64,000 bases of DNA from Candidatus Latescibacterota bacterium (GCA_965248435.1 OZ252100.1:160001-224000); one strand, 5' to 3'; numbered from the stretch's first letter, positions 7,526 through 44,169 are shown. A program made the numbers and translations. Notes: generated from the sequence alone by a model not told the origin.

Positions 7526-9825
7526 TGGCAAGTAAAACGGAAGAGTACCTGGGCCTGAAGGAATACAAAGTCATCGGTACCCGACCCATCCGTCACGACG
7601 GGGTCGACAAGGTCACGGGACGCGCGATTTATGGTGCGGATGTACAGCTGACGGGCCTGCTCCACGGAAAAGTATTACGCAGTCCGCACGCACACGCGCG
7701 CATCCGCTCGATCGACACGAGCCGTGCCGAGTCGCTGCCAGGTGTCAAAGCGGTGATTACGGCAAAAGATATCCCCGTACCGGAGGCGGGCGGCACCTCT
7801 CTCGGCAAGTCAGGGATGAACCTGAGCTACCTTCGAGAGAGTGTTCTGGCGGACAAGAAAGTGCTCTTCCACGGCCACCCCGTGGCGGCTGTGGCTTCGG
7901 CGAACCCCAACGTGGCAGAGGAGGCGCTGGATCTGATCGAGGTGGATTATGAGCTCCTACCTCCGGTGCTCGACGTGCGAGAAGCGATGAAGGGCGATGC
8001 CCCCCTCTTGTTAGAGGACCAGACCACGAAGGTGGGTGGCGAAGATACGGGCAAGAAGAGCAATGTCGCCACTCAGTTCCAGCACAAGCTGGGTGACGTA
8101 GAGAAAGGCTTCAAGGAGGCGGATGTCGTCATCGAGCGTGAGTTTCACACCGGGACGGTGCATCAGGGATATATCGAACCTCAAAACGCGACGGCGATGT
8201 GGAACGCGGACGGTCAACTGACGATATGGTGCAGCACCCAGGGGGCGTTCTGGGTGCGGGACCAGGTGGCTCCGCTTCTGCAGATACCGGTTTCCAAGGT
8301 CAAGATTGTCCCGACCGAGATCGGGGGCGGGTTTGGCGGCAAGATCCGAATCTACCTGGAACCGCTTGCCGCGATTCTTTCGAAGAAGACCGGCAAGCCG
8401 GTGAAGATGGTGATGAGCCGAACGGAGGTCATTCAAGCGACGGGTCCGACGCCCGGTTCGTATGTTCGTGCGAAGATGGGCGCCACGAAAGATGGAAAGC
8501 TAGTTGCCGGCGAGGCCTACTTGGCCTACGAATCAGGCACCCATCCGGGAGGATGGGCCGATTGCGGGGCCATGTGCATCTTCGCGCCTTACGACATACA
8601 GAACGTGCTGATCGACGGATTCAACGTGGTCGTGAACAAGACCCAGACGCAGGCCTACCGTGCGCCCGGCGCGACCAATGCGGCGTTTGCGTCGGAGACG
8701 ATCATCGACGAGATCTGTGAGAAGATAGGGATGGATCCCCTGGAGTTTCGACTTAAGAATTCGGCGAAAGAGGGCACAAGACGCGCAGACGGCCCGGTCT
8801 TTCCAAGGATCGGACACGAGCAGTGTGTAGAGGCCTCCAAGGCGAGTCCACACTATTCGGCCCCACTGGAGGGGCCGAATCGGGGCCGGGGCGTGGCATC
8901 CGGCTTCTGGTTCAACGTCGGGTTCATGTCGAGTGCGTGTGCGAGCGTGAACGATGATGGGACGGTCAGTCTTGTCGAAGGATCGACGGATATCGGTGGG
9001 TCTCGGACGTCCATCGCGATGCACCTTGCGGAGGCCCTGGGCATTTCCGCCGAGGAAGTGAAGCCGATGGTCGCCGATACCGATGCAGTCGGCTACACCG
9101 ACGTTACGGGCGGAAGCCGCACCACCTTCGCCACGGGTTGGGCGGCCTACGAGGCGGGGCAGGACATCAAACTTCAGATGGTTCAGCGCGCGGCCATCCA
9201 CTGGGAGATCTCAGAGGATGACGTGGAGTATGAGGACGGCACCTTGAAGTCCAAGTCTGATCCGTCCAAATCCATGACCTTCAAGGAGGTCGCCGAAAAA
9301 CTGGGCAGTACAGGTGGACCCATCGTTGGACGCGGGACGGTCGATCCTCAAGGGGTCGGTGGATCCTATGCACATATGCTCGTCGATGTGGAAGTTGACC
9401 CTGAGACTGGAAAGGTCGAGGTCTTACGTGCCACAATGATCCAGGACGCAGGAAAGGCCATTCATCCCAGCTACGTTGAAGGTCAGATGCAGGGCGGTAC
9501 GGTTCAGGGGATCGGTTGGGCATTGAACGAAGAATATTTCTATAACGAGAAGGGTCAACTGACGAACGCGAGTTTCCTCGACTACCGGATGCCGACATGT
9601 CTGGATGTTCCCATGGTCAACACTGTGATCGTCGAGGTGCCAAACCCAGGGCATCCATACGGGGTGAGAGGCGTGGGTGAAGCGAATATCGTTCCGCCTC
9701 CCGCGGCCGTTGCCAATGCGATCTATGACGCTGTAGGGGTGAGGATGAACGTGCTTCCAATGTCGCCCGGCAACATCTTGAAGGCGATTGCGGCAAAGGA
9801 GAATGGGGGGGACGGAAAGGCGTAA
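7525..9825 (+). CDS. Xanthine dehydrogenase family molybdopterin-binding (large) subunit, paralog 2
   Basis: KVTGRAIY, RSPHAHARI, GGGFGGK, AYRAPG, GVGE; TGATG coupling with the small subunit gene. Confidence 0.95.
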   Translation: MASKTEEYLGLKEYKVIGTRPIRHDGVDKVTGRAIYGADVQLTGLLHGKVLRSPHAHARIRSIDTSRAESLPGVKAVITAKDIPVPEAGGTSLGKSGMNLSYLRESVLADKKVLFHGHPVAAVASANPNVAEEALDLIEVDYELLPPVLDVREAMKGDAPLLLEDQTTKVGGEDTGKKSNVATQFQHKLGDVEKGFKEADVVIEREFHTGTVHQGYIEPQNATAMWNADGQLTIWCSTQGAFWVRDQVAPLLQIPVSKVKIVPTEIGGGFGGKIRIYLEPLAAILSKKTGKPVKMVMSRTEVIQATGPTPGSYVRAKMGATKDGKLVAGEAYLAYESGTHPGGWADCGAMCIFAPYDIQNVLIDGFNVVVNKTQTQAYRAPGATNAAFASETIIDEICEKIGMDPLEFRLKNSAKEGTRRADGPVFPRIGHEQCVEASKASPHYSAPLEGPNRGRGVASGFWFNVGFMSSACASVNDDGTVSLVEGSTDIGGSRTSIAMHLAEALGISAEEVKPMVADTDAVGYTDVTGGSRTTFATGWAAYEAGQDIKLQMVQRAAIHWEISEDDVEYEDGTLKSKSDPSKSMTFKEVAEKLGSTGGPIVGRGTVDPQGVGGSYAHMLVDVEVDPETGKVEVLRATMIQDAGKAIHPSYVEGQMQGGTVQGIGWALNEEYFYNEKGQLTNASFLDYRMPTCLDVPMVNTVIVEVPNPGHPYGVRGVGEANIVPPPAAVANAIYDAVGVRMNVLPMSPGNILKAIAAKENGGDGKA

Positions 9826-37151: not shown

Positions 37152-38072
37152 GTGTCTGAGCTACCCCTTCTGCTCGTCCTCGCTGGACCGACAGCGACCG
37201 GCAAGACCAGAACCGGTATCGGCCTCGCCGAAGCATTGGATGGGGAGATCATCTCGGCGGATGCCCGGCAGATCTATCGCCACATGGATATCGGCACTGC
37301 CAAGCCGAATAAGGAGGAACGGGCGGACGCGTCTCACCATGTTATCGACGTGGCGAACCCGGATGAGACCTATAGCGCTGGACGCTACGCGAGAGAGGCT
37401 GCGGCCGCGATCGACGATGTGATCAAAAGGGGGCGATCTCCGATCGTAGTGGGGGGGTCGGGGTTTTATCTGGAAGCGCTGCTCAAAGGGTTCTCGCCGA
37501 TCCCCGAGGTTCCACCAGATATGAGGGCCGCCCTGCAGGAGCAGGCGAGGGCTGATCTGGAGGGTCTGTATCGTCGACTGATGGGGGTGGATCCCGAAAC
37601 GGCATCGCGCCTGAATGCGAACGATGCGCAGAGGATCGTGAGGGGGCTGGAAGTGTATGAAGCGACCGGCGAGAAGCTGTCGGACCTTCAAGCCCTTCCT
37701 CGAGCGCAATACGGATCCTGGAACGTCAAATCGTTCGGCCTGACGATGGATCGGGAAGCGCTCTATCGCAGGATCGAGGACCGAGTGGGGAGAATGATCG
37801 AAGCGGGGCTGATCGAAGAAGTGAAGGGCCTCCGAGAGATGGGATATGGTCCGGAACTGAACGCGCTGAATACGTTCGGTTACCGGGAGACGTTTTCTTA
37901 CCTGGATGGGCGGATGAGATTGGATGATGCGGTGGAGGAGATGAAGATGGAGACGCGGCGCTACGCCAAACGCCAGATGACCTGGTTCAGGCGGGATCGC
38001 GAGATCGCCTGGATTGATCCCACCACGCAGGACGCCCCTTCTGAGATCCTTCGCGTGCTGGAAAGGGGTTGA
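37152..38072 (+). CDS. miaA: tRNA dimethylallyltransferase
   Basis: GPTATGKT, DARQIYRHMDIGTAKP, VGGSGFY, TRRYAKRQMTWF. Confidence 0.96.
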   Translation: MSELPLLLVLAGPTATGKTRTGIGLAEALDGEIISADARQIYRHMDIGTAKPNKEERADASHHVIDVANPDETYSAGRYAREAAAAIDDVIKRGRSPIVVGGSGFYLEALLKGFSPIPEVPPDMRAALQEQARADLEGLYRRLMGVDPETASRLNANDAQRIVRGLEVYEATGEKLSDLQALPRAQYGSWNVKSFGLTMDREALYRRIEDRVGRMIEAGLIEEVKGLREMGYGPELNALNTFGYRETFSYLDGRMRLDDAVEEMKMETRRYAKRQMTWFRRDREIAWIDPTTQDAPSEILRVLERG

Positions 38073-38097
38073 CAGACCTGTAGGGACTGGCTAGATT
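38069..38097 (+). promoter_or_regulatory. Sigma70 promoter of tRNA-Gly
   Basis: TTGACA-17nt-TAGATT, 13 nt before the tRNA. Confidence 0.75.
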
Positions 38098-38110
38098 CGG
38101 GAATACCGGG

Positions 38111-38185
38111 GCGGGAGTAGTTCAGCGGTAGAACGCAAGCTTCCCAAGCTTGATGTCGCGGGTTCGATCCCCGTCTCCCGCTCCA
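38111..38185 (+). tRNA. tRNA-Gly (anticodon CCC)
   Basis: GCGGGAG/CTCCCGC acceptor stem, D arm, CAAGC-TTCCCAA-GCTTG anticodon arm, GGTTCGAT T-loop, encoded CCA. Confidence 0.97.
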
Positions 38186-38253
38186 AATAATCTATTGAAC
38201 AACAATAACTTACGGGCAGCTGGCCAGTCAGCCAACTGCCCATTCTTCTGTCC

Positions 38254-38272
38254 TGCTAACAGCGTGCTAACA
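38254..38272 (+). repeat. Left arm-type repeat TGCTAACAGCGTGCTAACA
   Basis: Two TGCTAAC heptamers with 11-bp periodicity; near-identical copy at 41241-41259. Confidence 0.75.
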
Positions 38273-38416
38273 AAAGACTGATTTCTGCCGCTTTGTCAGT
38301 GGACAGGTCATTTCCAAAAGGCACTATCGGTAACAAATTGCGTGGAACGGGATTTGGTTATACCTTGCATGGTCGTCCGCGTAGTCTCCACTAATGTCCA
38401 ACAGCATCGAGGCGCT

Positions 38417-41119
38417 ATGACAACCGAACACGCCTGGACCCACCGTGGTTTCGAATCCTTTTCTGAAGGCCGCTTTGAAGATGGTGGCACCAACCTCTAC
38501 GTCAACGCTAAGGGCATCATTGAGACCATCCATCGCACGGACGTCGACAACGACGGCTATGTCGACATCGTCTTGCCGAACGCACAGGGCTACAACGAAC
38601 GCGGACCGACCTGGATCTACAAGCCCGGTCCCGGCGACGGTGCGACGTGGGAACGGCGTGAGTTGCCGACCGACAGCGGCGACTCGTGCCGCATCGTGGA
38701 CCTGGACGGCGACGGGCATCAGGATCTGATCATCATTAATTCGTCGAACGGCGTGTCGTGCGAATTGCTCTGCCACATCTACTGGGGCGGGCCGAACGGG
38801 CTGACCGGTGAGAGGACCGATCTGCGGACGGTCGGGGCCTACGACGTTGCCGTCTTCGACGTAAACGGGGACGGGCGTCTGGACCTGGTTTTTCCGTCGG
38901 CGTGGGTCGATCATCACAACCCGGGGAGACCCCTTCCGCTGCACGTTTACCTGCAGGGAGACGACCGACAGTTCAAAGACCGGGGCGAGGAGTACGGTCT
39001 CACCGGGATCGGCGCCCGGTCTGTGGCGGTGGCGGACCTGAACGGGGACGGTCATCTCGACCTGGTGGTGGCCAACTACCGCCACGAGTTCGAATACAAA
39101 ATCGATTCTTACATCTACTGGGGCACGAAGGACGGTTTCGACACGACGCCCCAGGGTCTTCCGACGGACACGGCGACCAAGGTGTTCCTCGCCGATTTCA
39201 ACGGGAACGGCCGGCCTGATATCATGTTCTGCGGCAACAACAAGGTCCAAGTCTACTGGAACGACGAGGGTCGCTTCAGTCCCGACAATGGTCTGGTCGT
39301 CGAGACGGAGGGGCTTCAAGGCGAATTTCACTTCGGCAAACTCTACGCTACGGCGGCCGACGTGGACGGCGACGGGCGGGACGAGCTGCTGGTCGCGACA
39401 CAGCGCGGGGTGGAGATCCGGTCCGCCGACGATCTGACCGAGGTGAAGCAGTTCCTGCCGCTGACATATGCCTACTGCGTCCACACCGCAGACCTGGACG
39501 GCGACGGACGTCCGGAGCTGATCGTCAGCAAGTATCAAGAGACGGAGACCTTCAACACGCAATCGGCGATCTACTGGAATGGTCCGGATGGATATTCGAC
39601 CGAACGCTGCGCCCGCGTGCCGACGATGGGGGCCGAGGGGGTGACCGCGGGCGACCTCGACGGCGACGGCAAGCCGGTTGTGGTCTTCTGCAATACCATG
39701 ACCGGACACGCCAAGACCAGCCCGACGCTGCCCTCCTACATCTACTTCGGAGGGCCTGAGGCGGACTACGGCGTGCACCGCCGCCAGGAATTGCCGGTGG
39801 GCGGCGAATGTTCTGAATGCGCGGTCACCGATCTGGACCTCGACGGGTGGAACGATCTCGTGTTCGGCAATATGGAAGGCCTGCGCATCTTTCAGGGAGG
39901 TCCCGACGGCTTCCATCCGGACCGTTATGAGGATCTGCCCTGTTTCATGCCGGGCGTGCAGGTGGCGGACTTCAACAGAGACGGGTATCTGGACATCTTG
40001 GCGCTCAGTCACACCTACAACGACAAGCCGGAGACGTTCGCGAATTCCTCGCGCATTTTCTGGGGCTCCGCCGAGGGATTCAGTCCCGATCGCTTCGACA
40101 TCTTTCCGACATTCACCGGCTCCCACGCCCATCTGGCCGACTTTACTCGAAACGGAACCCTGGATGTGCTGGTTGGGGACAAGCGCGGTTACATCCTGAT
40201 CTATCTGGGTGGCCCGGGGGGGTATTCCCTCGACCGCACGCAGCGCATCCCGATGTACAAGGACTGGCTCGGCAACGTCAACACGGCCGCCGACCTGAAC
40301 GGCAACGGTTGGCTTGACCTGGTGGTTTCCAGCGCCGGCCACTACCTCCGCAGGCCGGATACGCTGACGATCTTCTATGGCGGCCCGGACGGCTACAGCT
40401 GGGACAACACGCAGCACTATGAGGGCGGCTTCTCGCCTGGACAGATGACCGTCGCGGACCTGAACAACAACGGCCTGCTGGACCTGATCGTGCCGGCGTA
40501 CTCGACCGAACTGACGCGGGTCGTGCCGGTGCAGATCTTCTGGAACCAGGGGGACCGCTTCGACCTGGAACACCCGCTCGTGCTGCACGCGGATGCCGGC
40601 TTCGAGGCGCTCCCGATCGATCTCAACCGAAACGGCTACATCGACCTGTTCCTTGCGTGCCATCGCAACGACGTCGGCCACGTTGTGGACTCCCATATCT
40701 TCTGGAACGGCCCGGAAGGAATATCGAACGACCGCACGACGCCGCTGCCCGGCATGGGGCCTCACAGGCTGAATGCCCGCATGCCCGGGAACGCCTACAC
40801 GCGAGAGCCGATCGAACGCTACACCTCGCCGGCACACGAGACGGGTGATCGTCGGCCGTGCCGGATCAGCTGGGAGGCCGAGGTACCCGAGACGACGACT
40901 TTGCAGTTCGAGTTGCGCTGTGCGGAGAACGAAACGGCGCTGGAGCAGATGCCGTGGATGGGACCGGAAGGGGGGGGGTCGATGTTCGAGAATACGGGGG
41001 TGTCGATTCCGGAGCTGTGGCCGTCGACCCGCTTTGTGCAGTATCGCGCGACATTCACATCGCTATACGGCTGCCGTTCGCCACGGCTGCGCCAGGTCCG
41101 TATCGATTTCCGAAGCTGA
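38417..41119 (+). CDS. FG-GAP/VCBS repeat (beta-propeller) protein, about 900 aa
   Basis: Many DxNGDGxxDL repeats each followed by IYWGG-type strands. ATG 38417 after GAGG; no signal peptide. Confidence 0.9.
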   Translation: MTTEHAWTHRGFESFSEGRFEDGGTNLYVNAKGIIETIHRTDVDNDGYVDIVLPNAQGYNERGPTWIYKPGPGDGATWERRELPTDSGDSCRIVDLDGDGHQDLIIINSSNGVSCELLCHIYWGGPNGLTGERTDLRTVGAYDVAVFDVNGDGRLDLVFPSAWVDHHNPGRPLPLHVYLQGDDRQFKDRGEEYGLTGIGARSVAVADLNGDGHLDLVVANYRHEFEYKIDSYIYWGTKDGFDTTPQGLPTDTATKVFLADFNGNGRPDIMFCGNNKVQVYWNDEGRFSPDNGLVVETEGLQGEFHFGKLYATAADVDGDGRDELLVATQRGVEIRSADDLTEVKQFLPLTYAYCVHTADLDGDGRPELIVSKYQETETFNTQSAIYWNGPDGYSTERCARVPTMGAEGVTAGDLDGDGKPVVVFCNTMTGHAKTSPTLPSYIYFGGPEADYGVHRRQELPVGGECSECAVTDLDLDGWNDLVFGNMEGLRIFQGGPDGFHPDRYEDLPCFMPGVQVADFNRDGYLDILALSHTYNDKPETFANSSRIFWGSAEGFSPDRFDIFPTFTGSHAHLADFTRNGTLDVLVGDKRGYILIYLGGPGGYSLDRTQRIPMYKDWLGNVNTAADLNGNGWLDLVVSSAGHYLRRPDTLTIFYGGPDGYSWDNTQHYEGGFSPGQMTVADLNNNGLLDLIVPAYSTELTRVVPVQIFWNQGDRFDLEHPLVLHADAGFEALPIDLNRNGYIDLFLACHRNDVGHVVDSHIFWNGPEGISNDRTTPLPGMGPHRLNARMPGNAYTREPIERYTSPAHETGDRRPCRISWEAEVPETTTLQFELRCAENETALEQMPWMGPEGGGSMFENTGVSIPELWPSTRFVQYRATFTSLYGCRSPRLRQVRIDFRS

Positions 41120-41240
41120 AGACGAGAGGACCCTGCCAAGCTACCGGATCGAGGCTTGGAAGGGACCTGCCGATGAGAAAGATCTGGTTTGTGAAGTAAC
41201 GCAGAGATCGCCGTGACAGGTAATGATGTGCCACTATTCG

Positions 41241-41259
41241 TACTAACAGCCTGCTAACC
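41241..41259 (+). repeat. Right arm-type repeat TACTAACAGCCTGCTAACC
   Basis: 16/19 identical to the left repeat, same orientation, about 45 bp from the att core. Confidence 0.75.
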
Positions 41260-41304
41260 GGACCGACCGAAACGGGCCGAAACAGCCGAGATGCCAAATA
41301 ATGA

Positions 41305-41352
41305 CTTCCCAAGCTTGATGTCGCGGGTTCGATAAGCCCCGTCTTCGCTCCA
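41305..41352 (+). repeat. attR: displaced 3' half of tRNA-Gly
   Basis: CTTCCCAAGCTTGATGTCGCGGGTTCGAT + AAG insertion + CCCCGTCTTCGCTCCA. Confidence 0.92.
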
Positions 41353-41374
41353 GAATCTCCTCTTGAATATCTTT

Positions 41375-41405
41375 GGAGGATCGCTTTTTGCGATCCTCCG
41401 TTTTT
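41375..41405 (+). terminator. Intrinsic terminator (probably the original tRNA terminator)
   Basis: GGAGGATCGC-TTTTT-GCGATCCTCC then GTTTTT, 22 nt after the displaced tRNA end. Confidence 0.8.
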
Positions 41406-41424
41406 GTAGATGCCACGGATGCAC

Positions 41425-41463
41425 AAAGAAAGGGCCCCGTTCGCGAACTGCGAGCGGGGCCTT
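41425..41463 (-). terminator. Intrinsic terminator for minus-strand gene
   Basis: GGCCCCGTTCGC / GCGAGCGGGGCC stem preceded by an A-rich run on + (U tract on -). Confidence 0.6.
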
Positions 41464-41525
41464 CTCAGTCTAGCGCTTCCCTCAATACGGATGATTTTAG
41501 ATGTTTGGTTCCTCAAGAAACCTGT

Positions 41526-42455
41526 TCAACGGGCTACGAAGTTGATCTGTCCAGGTTGAAAGGTCAGCTCGGAAAATAGCGGCCCTGGCTTAGTCCCAGG
41601 CGGGGGCTGCACCGGCTGGAAAGAAACAATCGTCAGAGCGTGCAGCTCGATAGAAAATCTCCTTGTTTGTCCTCTGTCCAGGAGATGAAATGCGATCTGA
41701 CCCCGCAGCGGGACACCCATGCTGGCCTTCTTCACCAGGTCAGAAACGGCCGCTGTACCATCTTTGTCCGAGTTTAGACTCAATTGAACCGGTGAGATCT
41801 GGAGCCGACCCCCTTCGTTCCGACAGGTCACCGGGCTGGCGGCGTGGACTTGCACGTTCCCGGGCAGGCCGATGCTGTTTTCCATGATGAAATATGCCTC
41901 TTTAGCCAGAATATTTGGATCTATGCGCGGAGCAGATCCCCCACCTGAGCCTGACTTGAGGGGGATGGTGCTGGGGATGATCTGGACCGACATCGTGGCA
42001 AAAGAGCTGCTCTCGGGGTTTAACGTGGGGAAGGTAACCTGCGAGATGGCATAGTTGCTGTAGTTTTGGCGGCCCACTTCGCGCCCGGTCTTATCAAAAG
42101 TTTGGACTTCGACAGGCCTCGTACTGGGGGCTCCTCTTATCGCATCAAGAATCCAACTGGATAATGCTGGAGGCATCGATTGCGGATGAAAGCTGAAATC
42201 GATCGGCCCTCCCTGTGTTTTTCCTGTGGTGGTGACCTGGTATCTATCTCCCCCGGTGGTGCTGGTTGCCATCTGCGTGACCGGGTCAGCCACATTGAAA
42301 TGGATTACGTTTACAAGACCGCCCCCGATCAACACTGCTACTCTATGCGCTTGGGCCATGTCTGTTTTCACATCTGCAGCCTTGGCTGGTAGAGAAACAA
42401 TGAGTAAGAGCAGAACTACATGGGTTAGGACCCAAGGTAATTTATGGGCTCGCAC
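41526..42455 (-). CDS. Putative secreted protein with T4 gp19/tail-tube-like similarity
   Basis: GGGAGG SD then GTG at 42455; signal peptide (VVLLLLIVSLPAKA|AD). The segment LSSWI..DKTGREVGRQNY..AISQVTFPTL...MSVQIIP resembles tail-tube proteins as recalled. Confidence 0.55.
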   Translation of the reverse strand: MRAHKLPWVLTHVVLLLLIVSLPAKAADVKTDMAQAHRVAVLIGGGLVNVIHFNVADPVTQMATSTTGGDRYQVTTTGKTQGGPIDFSFHPQSMPPALSSWILDAIRGAPSTRPVEVQTFDKTGREVGRQNYSNYAISQVTFPTLNPESSSFATMSVQIIPSTIPLKSGSGGGSAPRIDPNILAKEAYFIMENSIGLPGNVQVHAASPVTCRNEGGRLQISPVQLSLNSDKDGTAAVSDLVKKASMGVPLRGQIAFHLLDRGQTRRFSIELHALTIVSFQPVQPPPGTKPGPLFSELTFQPGQINFVAR

Positions 42456-42747
42456 GGCTTGTACCTCCCTTTCTAAAGGTTTCCTGCGGACTGGTGAGCG
42501 GATACAATGGACAATATAAGCACTTGGAAGAGAAAAACTCGTGACAATGGTCACCAAGATAGGGCGCAGTAATTGGTTCAACAATGAGAAAATGATTCTA
42601 CGACCCCTATGGGACCAAACATGATGTCGCGTTGGACATCGGGAGGTTTCTCGCTGAATTGCCTTGACCCCCAAACCCTTTTCGTTTATCTTCAGTATTA
42701 AGTAATTCCGTAGAATTTCCCCACACCGCATTGTGTGACAACCAGAT

Positions 42748-44169
42748 ATGAGCGATCCAATTCCCGTCGAAGGTCGCCCCATGGTGACCGAGCTGCAGAT
42801 CGGCGTCGAGGTCACAGGGGTGATTCCGCGCGGCCTCGGGGAAGAGGCTGGAATTCTCCCGGGGGATGTAATCGAGCGGATAAACGGGGAAGCGGTCCGG
42901 GATCCGATCGATTACCGGTTCCACATCGGCGAGGACCTGGTCGAACTGGAGGTTCTACGCGGGGAGGAGAGGGTTGTCTTCGACATCGAAAAGGATCCGG
43001 ATGATGATCTCGGACTGGAACTCGAAGACCTTTCGATCCTCAAGTGCAACAACAAATGTGTCTTCTGTTTTCTGCATCAAATGCCGAAGGGGATGCGCAA
43101 GACCCTCTACTATCAGGACGATGATTACCGCCTTTCTTTTGCACACGGGGCCTATGTAACGCTCACGAACCTTTCGGAAGCCGATTTTCAGAGGATCGTG
43201 GATCAGCGGTTGAGCCCTGTCTACATCTCCGTTCACGCGACCGATCCGAAATTGAGGGGAAGCCTTTTGGGGCGCGAAAAGGCGGTCGACGTGGACGTGA
43301 TGGAAAGGATTCGCTTCCTGAGCGAAAACGGGATCGAGATGCACACGCAGGTCGTCCTCTGCCCCGGACTGAACGATGACCTCCATCTGAAACGAACCGT
43401 CTTCGACCTCGCAGCCTGTTATCCAGACGTGGCGTCCCTTGGTATCGTCCCTCTGGGGTTGACGCGATTCCGAAAGAACCTTCCAGAACTCGATCCAGTC
43501 ACCCCCGAAATTGCAGATAGGACGATCGAGCAGGTAACGCCGTGGCAGTCCAGTTTGAAGAAGAAGCTCGGGCACAATTTCGTCTACCTCGGGGACGAAT
43601 TCTACCTGCAGGCCGACCGAGACATTCCGTCCGCATCCGCCTATGATGGATTTCCACTCCTGGAGAATGGGGTGGGGATGGTGCGCCGGTTCTGTGACGC
43701 CTTTGAAAGCGGAGTTGACCGCCTTCGGAGCGTCCCCGAGCCGCGACGCATCCTGCTGGTGACGAGCCGGCTTGGCGAAAGATTCGTGCGGGGGATGGTA
43801 GATCGTCTGAACGGTCTGGGATGCCTAGAGGTCGAACTCGTGGAGGTCCGGAATCGATTCTTCGGGGATGGGATCACGGTCACCGGTCTGCTGACCGGGG
43901 CGGACATGCTGGATGCGTTGAAAAGCGAATGGAAATCGCCCCAGGTTGTGGTCCTTCCTCCCAATTGCGTCAGCCACGCCGGGCTGTTTCTGGATGATCT
44001 CACACCGTCGGATCTTGCCGATGCCCTCGGGGCGGAGGTCGTGGTTGGGAGCTACGACCTCGTGCAGACGATAGAGCGGATTACCAGCGGCCGGAAAATG
44101 GAGAAGGGTGTCGGTGGTGACCCGCCGTGGGCGCATCCTTACATCTCTTCGCGCCAGATGGCATCCTGA
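42748..44169 (+). CDS. PDZ + DUF512 putative Fe-S oxidoreductase (radical SAM-like)
   Basis: N-terminal PDZ, CNNKCVFCF, DDDYRLSF, ENGVG, VTGLLTG; coupled to der. Confidence 0.88.
   Translation: MSDPIPVEGRPMVTELQIGVEVTGVIPRGLGEEAGILPGDVIERINGEAVRDPIDYRFHIGEDLVELEVLRGEERVVFDIEKDPDDDLGLELEDLSILKCNNKCVFCFLHQMPKGMRKTLYYQDDDYRLSFAHGAYVTLTNLSEADFQRIVDQRLSPVYISVHATDPKLRGSLLGREKAVDVDVMERIRFLSENGIEMHTQVVLCPGLNDDLHLKRTVFDLAACYPDVASLGIVPLGLTRFRKNLPELDPVTPEIADRTIEQVTPWQSSLKKKLGHNFVYLGDEFYLQADRDIPSASAYDGFPLLENGVGMVRRFCDAFESGVDRLRSVPEPRRILLVTSRLGERFVRGMVDRLNGLGCLEVELVEVRNRFFGDGITVTGLLTGADMLDALKSEWKSPQVVVLPPNCVSHAGLFLDDLTPSDLADALGAEVVVGSYDLVQTIERITSGRKMEKGVGGDPPWAHPYISSRQMAS

Follow-up and report, generated by a model that had tools for sequence, protein, structure and literature searches.

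A lambda-type attP comprises a core and arm-type sites, together with binding sites for an accessory protein (the excisionase, Xis) in the P arm, and is bent by integration host factor (IHF). Islands inserted in tRNA genes have reportedly been divided into sublocation classes by Williams in 2002. Cis-mobilizable elements (CIMEs) have lost their integration genes while keeping both attL and attR, often stand in tandem and can be moved when a related element integrates next to them; the source presents CIMEs as derivatives of conjugative or mobilizable elements, namely streptococcal ICEs (integrative and conjugative elements) and IMEs (integrative and mobilizable elements), and describes the transfer of CIME-ICE tandems as established in Firmicutes (PMC5704250). 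In the Islander collection, anticodon-centred islands (class A) are the commonest class of tRNA island (2083 of 3919) and the split tRNA is restored by the island; the part of that paper that sets out its search strategy states that an integrase gene is required in each island (PMC4383910). Here we describe a unit at tRNA-Gly(CCC) in a stretch of 64,000 nucleotides from a Candidatus Latescibacterota bacterium, which is called the window below and corresponds to C1:160001-224000 of a 5,673,632-bp genome in two contigs (G000, the source genome). The unit carries one FG-GAP gene and no recombinase gene between two copies of a tRNA sequence. We consider it, with a probability of roughly 70%, to be the decayed remnant of an integrase-driven genomic island at tRNA-Gly(CCC), CIME-like in what it has kept and now fixed in the chromosome.

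The intact tRNA-Gly(CCC) gene, the putative integration target, lies on the + strand at 38111-38185 (ARAGORN; Rfam RF00005, 69.3 bits). It is the sole tRNA gene that ARAGORN finds in the window and the sole Rfam match within 37900-42800. A repeat search revealed a 29-nt sequence within the gene at 38140-38168, the presumed attL core, which recurs in direct orientation and with 100% identity at 41305-41333, the two copies starting 3165 bp apart. The repeat begins at 38140 with the last base of the 5′ strand of the anticodon stem, one base before the 7-nt loop. Its distal copy is part of a partial tRNA-Gly sequence at 41305-41352, the presumed attR core, which aligns on the same strand as the tRNA over the entire 46-nt 3′ half; behind the 29 exact bases, the last 17 nt have decayed by a 3-nt insertion, a 1-nt deletion and one mismatch. 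A terminator at 41374-41405 (+ strand) follows, consisting of a hairpin of 11 pairs at 41374-41400, 7 of them G-C, and a T-run with the tail TTTTTGT. A second hairpin of 14 pairs (38212-38243, with no strand assigned, listed on the - strand) stands directly 3′ of the intact tRNA; it is borne by the island and is the counterpart of the left-arm terminator hairpin found throughout the family that is described below. According to the standard attL model, the 3′ part of tRNA-Gly from the anticodon loop on would have been supplied by the island. The flanking core genes are mutL and miaA upstream and a radical-SAM/DUF512 gene and der downstream. An earlier note on this stretch, made from its sequence alone, had described a displaced and decayed tRNA 3′ end with a terminator behind it, which the 46-nt alignment and the hairpin confirm; its 29-bp repeat and the spacing of 3165 bp also stand, but the repeat starts one base earlier than the anticodon loop, at which the note had placed it exactly.

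Inside each end of the unit lies a double heptamer on the + strand, which is a candidate arm-type integrase site. The left pair, TGCTAAC-AGCG-TGCTAAC, occupies 38254-38271, 68 bp 3′ of the CCA end of the tRNA, and the right pair, TACTAAC-AGCC-TGCTAAC, occupies 41241-41258, 46 bp from the distal core. The window contains five copies of the single heptamer TRCTAAC, where 3.6 would be expected, and four of these copies make up the two pairs. In the whole genome there are 184 single heptamers and only four pairs of the form TRCTAAC-N4-TRCTAAC, all of them on the + strand, that is, the tRNA strand, and all at the ends of tRNA-bounded units; the other two, at C1:140732 and C1:144909, flank a sister unit at tRNA-Pro(CGG). 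Across the 53 genomes of the order the pair gives 10 matches in 5 genomes and its reversed control none, and in the phylum as a whole (168 genomes) there are 14 matches to the exact TGCTAAC pair, in 8 genomes, and 2 to the reversed control. The count of the looser pattern CTAAY-N6-CTAAY in the source genome is uninformative, with 10 matches against 27 for the reversed control; six of the 10 stand at the ends of islands at tRNA-Pro, -Gly and -Thr. The pairs that the earlier note had seen inside both ends are therefore real and far from chance expectation. A left-arm block at 38249-38298 (+ strand), made up of the pair and about 27 bp beyond it, is common to the unit and the sister element, where BLAST finds it at C1:140727-140776 with 86% identity over 50 nt (E 3e-8); a weaker BLAST match (77%, E 3.4e-6) falls in the left arm at tRNA-Pro(GGG) of another genome, G004.

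Behind the right pair, a run of CCGA and CCGAAAC motifs at 41263-41290 (+ strand; 41267-41273 and 41277-41283), read from the sequence and partly aligned with other arms, could be bound by an accessory protein, for example an excisionase. Similar CCGAAA(C)-like motifs, about 10 bp apart, are found behind the pair in right arms only, in the window and at the loci L011, L042, L043, L044 and L047. The earlier note had also pointed to a 13-mer at 38200-38212 resembling an IHF site. This sequence has 2 mismatches to WATCAANNNNTTR. Sites of that stringency number 248 in the window, where shuffles give an expectation of 265, and nothing comparable occurs at the corresponding place of the sister element; a specific IHF site was rejected on these two grounds.

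The arrangement of the arms recurs in other genomes. All 10 pair sites in the order, four in the source genome and six in relatives, were inspected, and each either adjoins a tRNA 3′ half or stands where a unit bounded in this way ends. The form NNCTAAY-N4-NNCTAAY is present in all seven left arms and all seven right arms examined, and it stands beside family integrases in G047, G038 and G091. The order of tRNA end, hairpin and pair holds in 7 of 7 left arms, with distances from the CCA end to the pair of 68, 73, 70, 68, 68, 47 and 68 bp, six of which fall within 68-73 bp. In right arms, the pair is followed by the CCGAAA-like repeats and then by a longer spacer, and the distance from pair to core in the six right arms other than that of the unit is 119, 151, 129, 162, 119 and 118 bp. 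Intact enzymes accompany the arms in G047: on contig C59 there is an integrase of 382 aa, with its stop codon 28 bp from the pair and the pair 68 bp behind tRNA-Pro(TGG), and on C58 there is one of 410 aa with the variant pair ATCTAAT/ATCTAAC, followed 162 bp further on by a half of tRNA-Pro(CGG) that begins at the anticodon loop. Two of the three pairs in G091 (C36 and C141) lie about 40 bp past the end of a family integrase match, and the third lies 48 bp behind tRNA-Val(GAC). In the family integrases, about 70 residues precede the SAM-like domain; Pfam gave no significant match in the three integrase N-termini searched, the arm-binding domain PF14657 reaching only E 0.26 in one of them. This conserved layout is what the arm-type sites of one integrase family would look like, and we infer from the sequences that the heptamers bind the integrase. 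The earlier note's idea that the heptamers are arm sites gains from their fixed distance to the tRNA end across genomes and from their position, in several cases, directly beside integrase genes, at 20-40 bp from the end of an intact one; the association of such repeats with tyrosine integrases, which the note had left to be searched for, is found in G047 and G091.

Two further loci belong beside this family. At L038 (G004:C1), positions 9380-9640 belong to a 1.8-kb unit at tRNA-Pro(TGG) with another arm motif, GTGGTTGCAA, repeated three times before the same core, so that unrelated island families share one tRNA target in tandem. At L042 and L043 (G044, contigs C190 and C1), which concern different tRNA-Pro isoacceptors, the C-terminus of a histidine kinase stands in both cases just before the right-arm pair, which indicates related cargo at two tRNA targets.

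The tRNA-Gly(CCC) site itself could be compared in relatives. In a genome of the same genus (G001), the stretch from miaA to the tRNA is 80% identical up to the end of the tRNA, and the similarity resumes 208 bp later at the radical-SAM region; the tRNA and that region are 4463 bp apart in the source genome. No heptamer pair is present at the tRNA-Gly(CCC) site of G001, which by this sequence comparison is an empty site. In another genome of the same taxonomic family, the alignment of miaA and the tRNA, where listed, likewise ends within a few bases of the tRNA end. The earlier note had proposed to look for the empty attB in reads; such a site is seen in the genome of G001, and the note's proposal that the unit entered tRNA-Gly(CCC) by an integrase-type event, at the anticodon-loop sublocation, is supported by this same-genus site.

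A genome from another family of the same order (G038) shows an occupied site. It has miaA, tRNA-Gly(CCC), the hairpin and, at 68 bp, a pair; the cargo behind this pair spans 38.4 kb, and at the right end of the island follow a family integrase of 412 aa, a second pair, a 119-bp spacer and a tRNA-Gly half. Of 46 positions, 45 match in this attR half, which starts at the same base as that of the source genome. Among the mixed cargo, part of which consists of metabolic or envelope genes, are a resolvase, an NHL protein, Mutator-type transposases, an MMPL transporter, a TonB-dependent receptor and a restriction-modification remnant, and in the 19 open reading frames (ORFs) scanned, all from this island and none of them small, there was no match to a relaxase, a coupling protein or type IV secretion. 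A full-size, integrase-bearing island therefore exists for exactly the tRNA-Gly(CCC) target.

The sister element of the source genome stands 57 kb upstream of the unit at tRNA-Pro(CGG) (C1:140582-146247; locus L011, 2083-7756). Three copies of the 3′ half of tRNA-Pro(CGG), from the anticodon loop on, delimit tandem units of 4433 bp and 1156 bp, and the parts follow one another as they do at tRNA-Gly, with the tRNA end, the hairpin, a pair (at 73 bp), the cargo, a second pair and the core. The start of the identity block at the anticodon loop is likewise shared by the Pro(CGG) units and the tRNA-Gly island of G038. The cargo consists of an AAA_13/AAA_21-type ATPase of 863 aa and small ORFs without family matches. 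Moreover, the 4433-bp unit retains the last approximately 80 codons of a tyrosine integrase, with a frameshift just before the catalytic tyrosine motif, and this remnant is 60% and 54% identical, in two frames, to the integrase on G047:C59. Ends of the same kind around different cargo, which the earlier note had envisaged for tRNA-Gly(CCC), do exist, at another tRNA. As a separate observation, the 863-aa ATPase could be a defence gene.

The sole cargo of the tRNA-Gly unit is a gene for an FG-GAP repeat protein of 900 aa (38417-41119, + strand), which is intact, without internal stops, and matches Pfam FG-GAP_3 in 10 stretches (1.4e-63). It is the only long ORF with a family match between the core copies, and none of the 16 matches to the tyrosine-recombinase domain PF00589 in the genome lies within the element (38186-41304). 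The earlier statement that a single FG-GAP gene forms the cargo and that no recombinase is present is confirmed by the ORF, Pfam and PF00589 results. Homologues with 78-80% identity occur in G001 (two copies, 78-79%) and in G038 (80%); the similarity is restricted to the coding region, and no tRNA and no heptamer pair are present within 11-20 kb around each copy. The idea that the FG-GAP gene travels together with the arms was rejected because its homologues stand away from tRNA genes and pairs. A scan of metagenome contigs with the FG-GAP protein gave 31 pattern matches, none of which was confirmed. One further comparison concerns the gene: between 38441-41106 and G038:C1:8035887-8038564 the identity is 80%, although G038 is of another family of the order, and thus equals that of the two copies in the same-genus genome (78-79%), whereas miaA is only 64-68% identical in the other genera of the source's own family. 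This contrast suggests that the gene moved horizontally by some other route.

Several observations bear on whether the unit can still move. The right arm is short: its pair-to-core distance of 46 bp is about 70-115 bp less than in the six other right arms (118-162 bp), and alignment A1 shows that the core-proximal block is missing, with the first approximately 32 nt behind the pair still aligning with the sister element. The source genome contains no intact integrase of the cognate family; a search with the G047:C58 integrase gave no match at E 1e-30, and its other integrases are at best 26-30% identical to the G047:C59 enzyme. One contig from a seawater metagenome extends over 38159-38566 and takes in the 3′ part of the tRNA, the arm and the first part of the FG-GAP gene; over 407 nt it shows 27 differences and a single gap. 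A contig next to it covers 37854-38156 with 17 differences. A left junction of tRNA, arm and FG-GAP gene that is shared with a population about 93-94% identical points to long inheritance rather than recent movement. The three mutational events in the distal tRNA copy also speak for long residence, and the independence of the FG-GAP homologues from the arms counts towards the relic as well.

Contigs of two runs touch the same region. In run X19, two long skips start from 38185/38186 (4859 and 5146 bases), the shorter side being 27-28 letters, and they may stem from other organisms. In run X23, there is a 4650-nt contig with 98.7% identity over the FG-GAP gene, in which 41141 and 42655 are linked by 444 nt that do not resemble the window; this shows that close relatives differ in the segment that holds the right arm, the distal copy and a secreted-protein ORF.

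That ORF lies behind the unit, where 1.3 kb separates the distal copy from position 42656, at which similarity to G001 resumes. It encodes about 309 aa with a signal-peptide-like N-terminus (41526-42455, - strand; translation) and has no Pfam or NCBIfam match. The ORF is lacking at the same site of G001, and a paralogue with 71% DNA identity stands in the island array at tRNA-Leu(GAG) of the source genome (C1:5165192-5165646); the ORF probably came as cargo of an older island, a remnant of which lies next to the unit. A possible third copy of the tRNA-Gly 3′ half, strongly decayed, is found by local alignment at 42615-42631 (+ strand; 15 of 17 bases), 24 bp before 42656. Its score is reached by 1.7% of 300 random 1.4-kb segments of the source genome, and it is weak but well-placed evidence for an older core copy and thus for an older unit behind the FG-GAP unit. 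If this copy is real, the older unit may have the middle copy with its terminator as its left end, in which case these would not be the original chromosomal end of the tRNA. On the other side of the unit, 5′ of tRNA-Gly, a consensus scan gives a promoter-like site, TTGACA-17-TAGATT (38069-38097, + strand), which is a pattern match at 10 of 12 positions.

Elsewhere in the source genome, at least six of the 48 tRNA genes are accompanied, at a distance of up to 26 kb, by displaced fragments of their 3′ part (Pro-CGG, Gly-CCC, Pro-TGG, Val-TAC, Thr-TGT and Leu-GAG). Fragments that begin near the anticodon loop are also seen at tRNA-Pro(TGG), Val(TAC), Thr(TGT) and Leu(GAG), and a number of orphan fragments occur in other places. 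Island scars are abundant in this genome. At tRNA-Thr(TGT) (C1:4624031-4625395 and 4649821-4651162) there are two tandem islands, the integrase genes of which start right behind a tRNA copy; one enzyme is intact (370 aa) and the other has a stop codon. The arms are arranged differently here, with a TTCTAAC-N4-TTCTAAC pair and CCGAAA-like repeats on the opposite strand at about 1.3 kb from the core. In addition, six ORFs for tyrosine recombinases of 314 aa (C1:1448697, 3850323, 4651755, 2072009, 4843473 and 5171870) fall into two groups of three with identical scores, which looks like a mobile element present in several copies and equipped with a recombinase of this type.

The history that we propose for the tRNA-Gly unit starts from the plan of its family. 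In these islands the attachment site has its own copy of the tRNA 3′ half and the terminator hairpin, an NNCTAAY pair (TGCTAAC in the unit) with 11-bp spacing about 68 bp past the tRNA end in one arm, and, in the other arm, a further pair, CCGAAA-type repeats and normally a spacer of about 120-160 bp before the core. A tyrosine integrase would have inserted such an island, with the working tRNA rebuilt at the left end and the original 3′ half displaced to the right end, where it later decayed. The right arm would subsequently have lost its core-proximal 70-115 bp, and the island its integrase gene and any further cargo, by deletion if the analogy with related islands holds. This would leave both cores, both pairs and one intact FG-GAP gene, which now behaves like any other inherited gene of the chromosome. 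Because the source genome has no intact integrase of the cognate family, the unit most likely no longer moves. The earlier note had left two readings side by side, an island reduced to its cis sites and a cassette that is excisable in trans. The former is favoured by the 38-kb island of G038, the decay of the sister integrase, the lack of a cognate integrase, the short right arm and the junction that is about 93% identical in the population, and the latter is less supported.

Several observations weigh against the relic history. In the second of these readings, the unit is a working non-autonomous cassette that would retain all its cis requirements, namely both cores, both arm-site pairs and the accessory repeats: an integrase of the CTAAC-arm type that arrived in the cell, for example with an island landing in tandem at this tRNA, would excise and re-integrate it in trans, similar to the accretion of CIMEs. 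The four heptamers are nearly perfect, with one G-to-A change, and the 29 core base pairs are identical, so both pairs and the core are intact in a way that would also fit cis sites under selection. The exact TGCTAAC pair has an integrase beside it only at G047:C59, G091:C36 and G091:C141; most pair-bearing elements of relatives have none nearby, and arm-bearing units without an integrase outnumber those with one. This scarcity fits frequent decay, and it fits a non-autonomous class of element as well. In tblastn searches with three family integrases, neither the non-coding ends of the unit nor the 1.3 kb following it showed a remnant of an integrase gene (best E 0.02), so that the deletion is proposed by analogy. 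The one deviant left arm, at 47 bp, indicates that the geometry of the family arms is not rigid. The island of G038, with its heptamers ATCTAAT/GTCTAAT and cargo unrelated to that of the unit, is not the direct ancestor, because heptamers and cargo differ; of the possibility raised in the earlier note, that a relative carries a larger integrase-bearing island from which the unit arose by simple deletion, the island of 38 kb is thus present in G038, but the simple-deletion parent is not. The cassette would further be in keeping with the different cargo held by the same arms at tRNA-Pro(CGG), with the tandem arrays at one tRNA that are common in the source genome and its relatives and indicate that accretion occurs, and with the CIME concept itself, for which the tandem transfer with an ICE in Firmicutes is described in the cited part of the literature (PMC5704250). 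We nevertheless regard a working cassette as unlikely. The source genome lacks a cognate integrase that could act on it, the right arm is without the core-proximal 70-115 bp found in all six others, and the tRNA end at attR is decayed; the left junction, shared with a population that is about 93% identical, fits vertical inheritance, and the FG-GAP homologues elsewhere are without these arms. Among the joints listed (15 of 75) for the contigs of the source-like run X19, a 3165-base skip from 38140 to 41305 was not seen, although the four public runs consist of assembled contigs only, in which rare circles or empty sites are not visible.

A variant of the relic history would derive the two arms from different members of a tandem array, a deletion having removed the middle core and both interiors and left the FG-GAP gene. 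As a rule, these sites hold tandem arrays in which the core occurs several times, an older remnant with a possible third core copy lies behind the unit, and the right pair begins with TACTAAC where the left has TGCTAAC; yet no junction is marked in the sequence, and in the sister element at tRNA-Pro(CGG) the left and right pairs are as similar to each other as are those of the unit. Such a fusion appears distinctly improbable to us, and it is a variant of the relic explanation that predicts the same present state. That the partial tRNA copy and the heptamers are no scar of a mobile element, having arisen by local duplication or chance, would agree with the lack of a recombinase gene inside the unit, but it is scarcely credible for a pair that occurs four times in 5.67 Mb, always at the ends of tRNA-bounded units, and that has no reversed match in 53 genomes. 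The same holds for an arm layout that is conserved across genera and stands beside integrase genes, and for the empty site in the same genus. Collectively, we hold to the reading of the unit as an island relic.

Taken alone, the unit is an ordinary outcome of island decay, in which an acquired gene becomes fixed while the scars of its arrival stay readable. The family to which it belongs represents islands that target the anticodon loop in a small marine phylum, with integrases that have several tRNA targets. Moreover, NNCTAAY-N4-NNCTAAY at about 68 bp from a tRNA end is a searchable motif that delimits islands, including those without an integrase that are discarded by integrase-based finders. 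A bolder proposal, which we consider a long shot, is that the CTAAC-arm islands include non-autonomous units of one to a few genes, each hardly more than a tRNA half and its terminator, two arm-site pairs and a cargo gene, that are shuttled in trans among tRNA-Gly, -Pro, -Val, -Arg and -Thr by family integrases brought in with other islands. If this were true, there would be a tRNA-targeted cassette system, the tandem arrays would be exchangeable gene stores rather than graveyards, and the cassettes would be a new trans-mobilized kind.

The comparison with known systems can now be drawn. Like other islands that enter tRNA genes at the anticodon loop, the unit has a restored tRNA, a displaced 3′ fragment at its far end and an identity block from the anticodon loop on; it differs in having one cargo gene and no integrase, which leaves it outside the complete islands, and Islander would filter it out because an integrase gene is required there. 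The arms recall a lambda-type attP in their direct short repeats on both sides, about one helical turn apart and at conserved distances from the core, and in the CCGAAA repeats that are present in one arm only, as are the Xis sites of the P arm; in contrast to lambda, the arm sites of this family are candidates, an arm-binding domain gives no confident match in its integrases and the IHF-like match is at chance level. With an integron cassette, the unit shares a single gene of promoter-less appearance between recombination sites. It has, however, no imperfect inverted repeat of the attC type, no integron integrase and no attI, but a tRNA core with lambda-like arms; a repeat search found no inverted-repeat recombination site at the unit ends, and the NCBIfam integron-integrase model gives the family integrases 26.9 and 40.9 bits against a cut-off of 265. 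The closest likeness is with CIMEs, in that both cores and both heptamer pairs are kept without a recombinase. The differences are that no conjugation or mobilization genes are seen among the 19 ORFs scanned in the full-length island of this family in G038, that the right arm of the unit is shortened and that the host belongs to a small, little studied phylum (168 species genomes). By its structure, as far as the sequence goes, the unit is a candidate member of the CIME class, conjugative ancestry and mobilization aside; elements without an integrase that keep their att ends are already known as CIMEs, and the unit at tRNA-Gly(CCC) adds one more.

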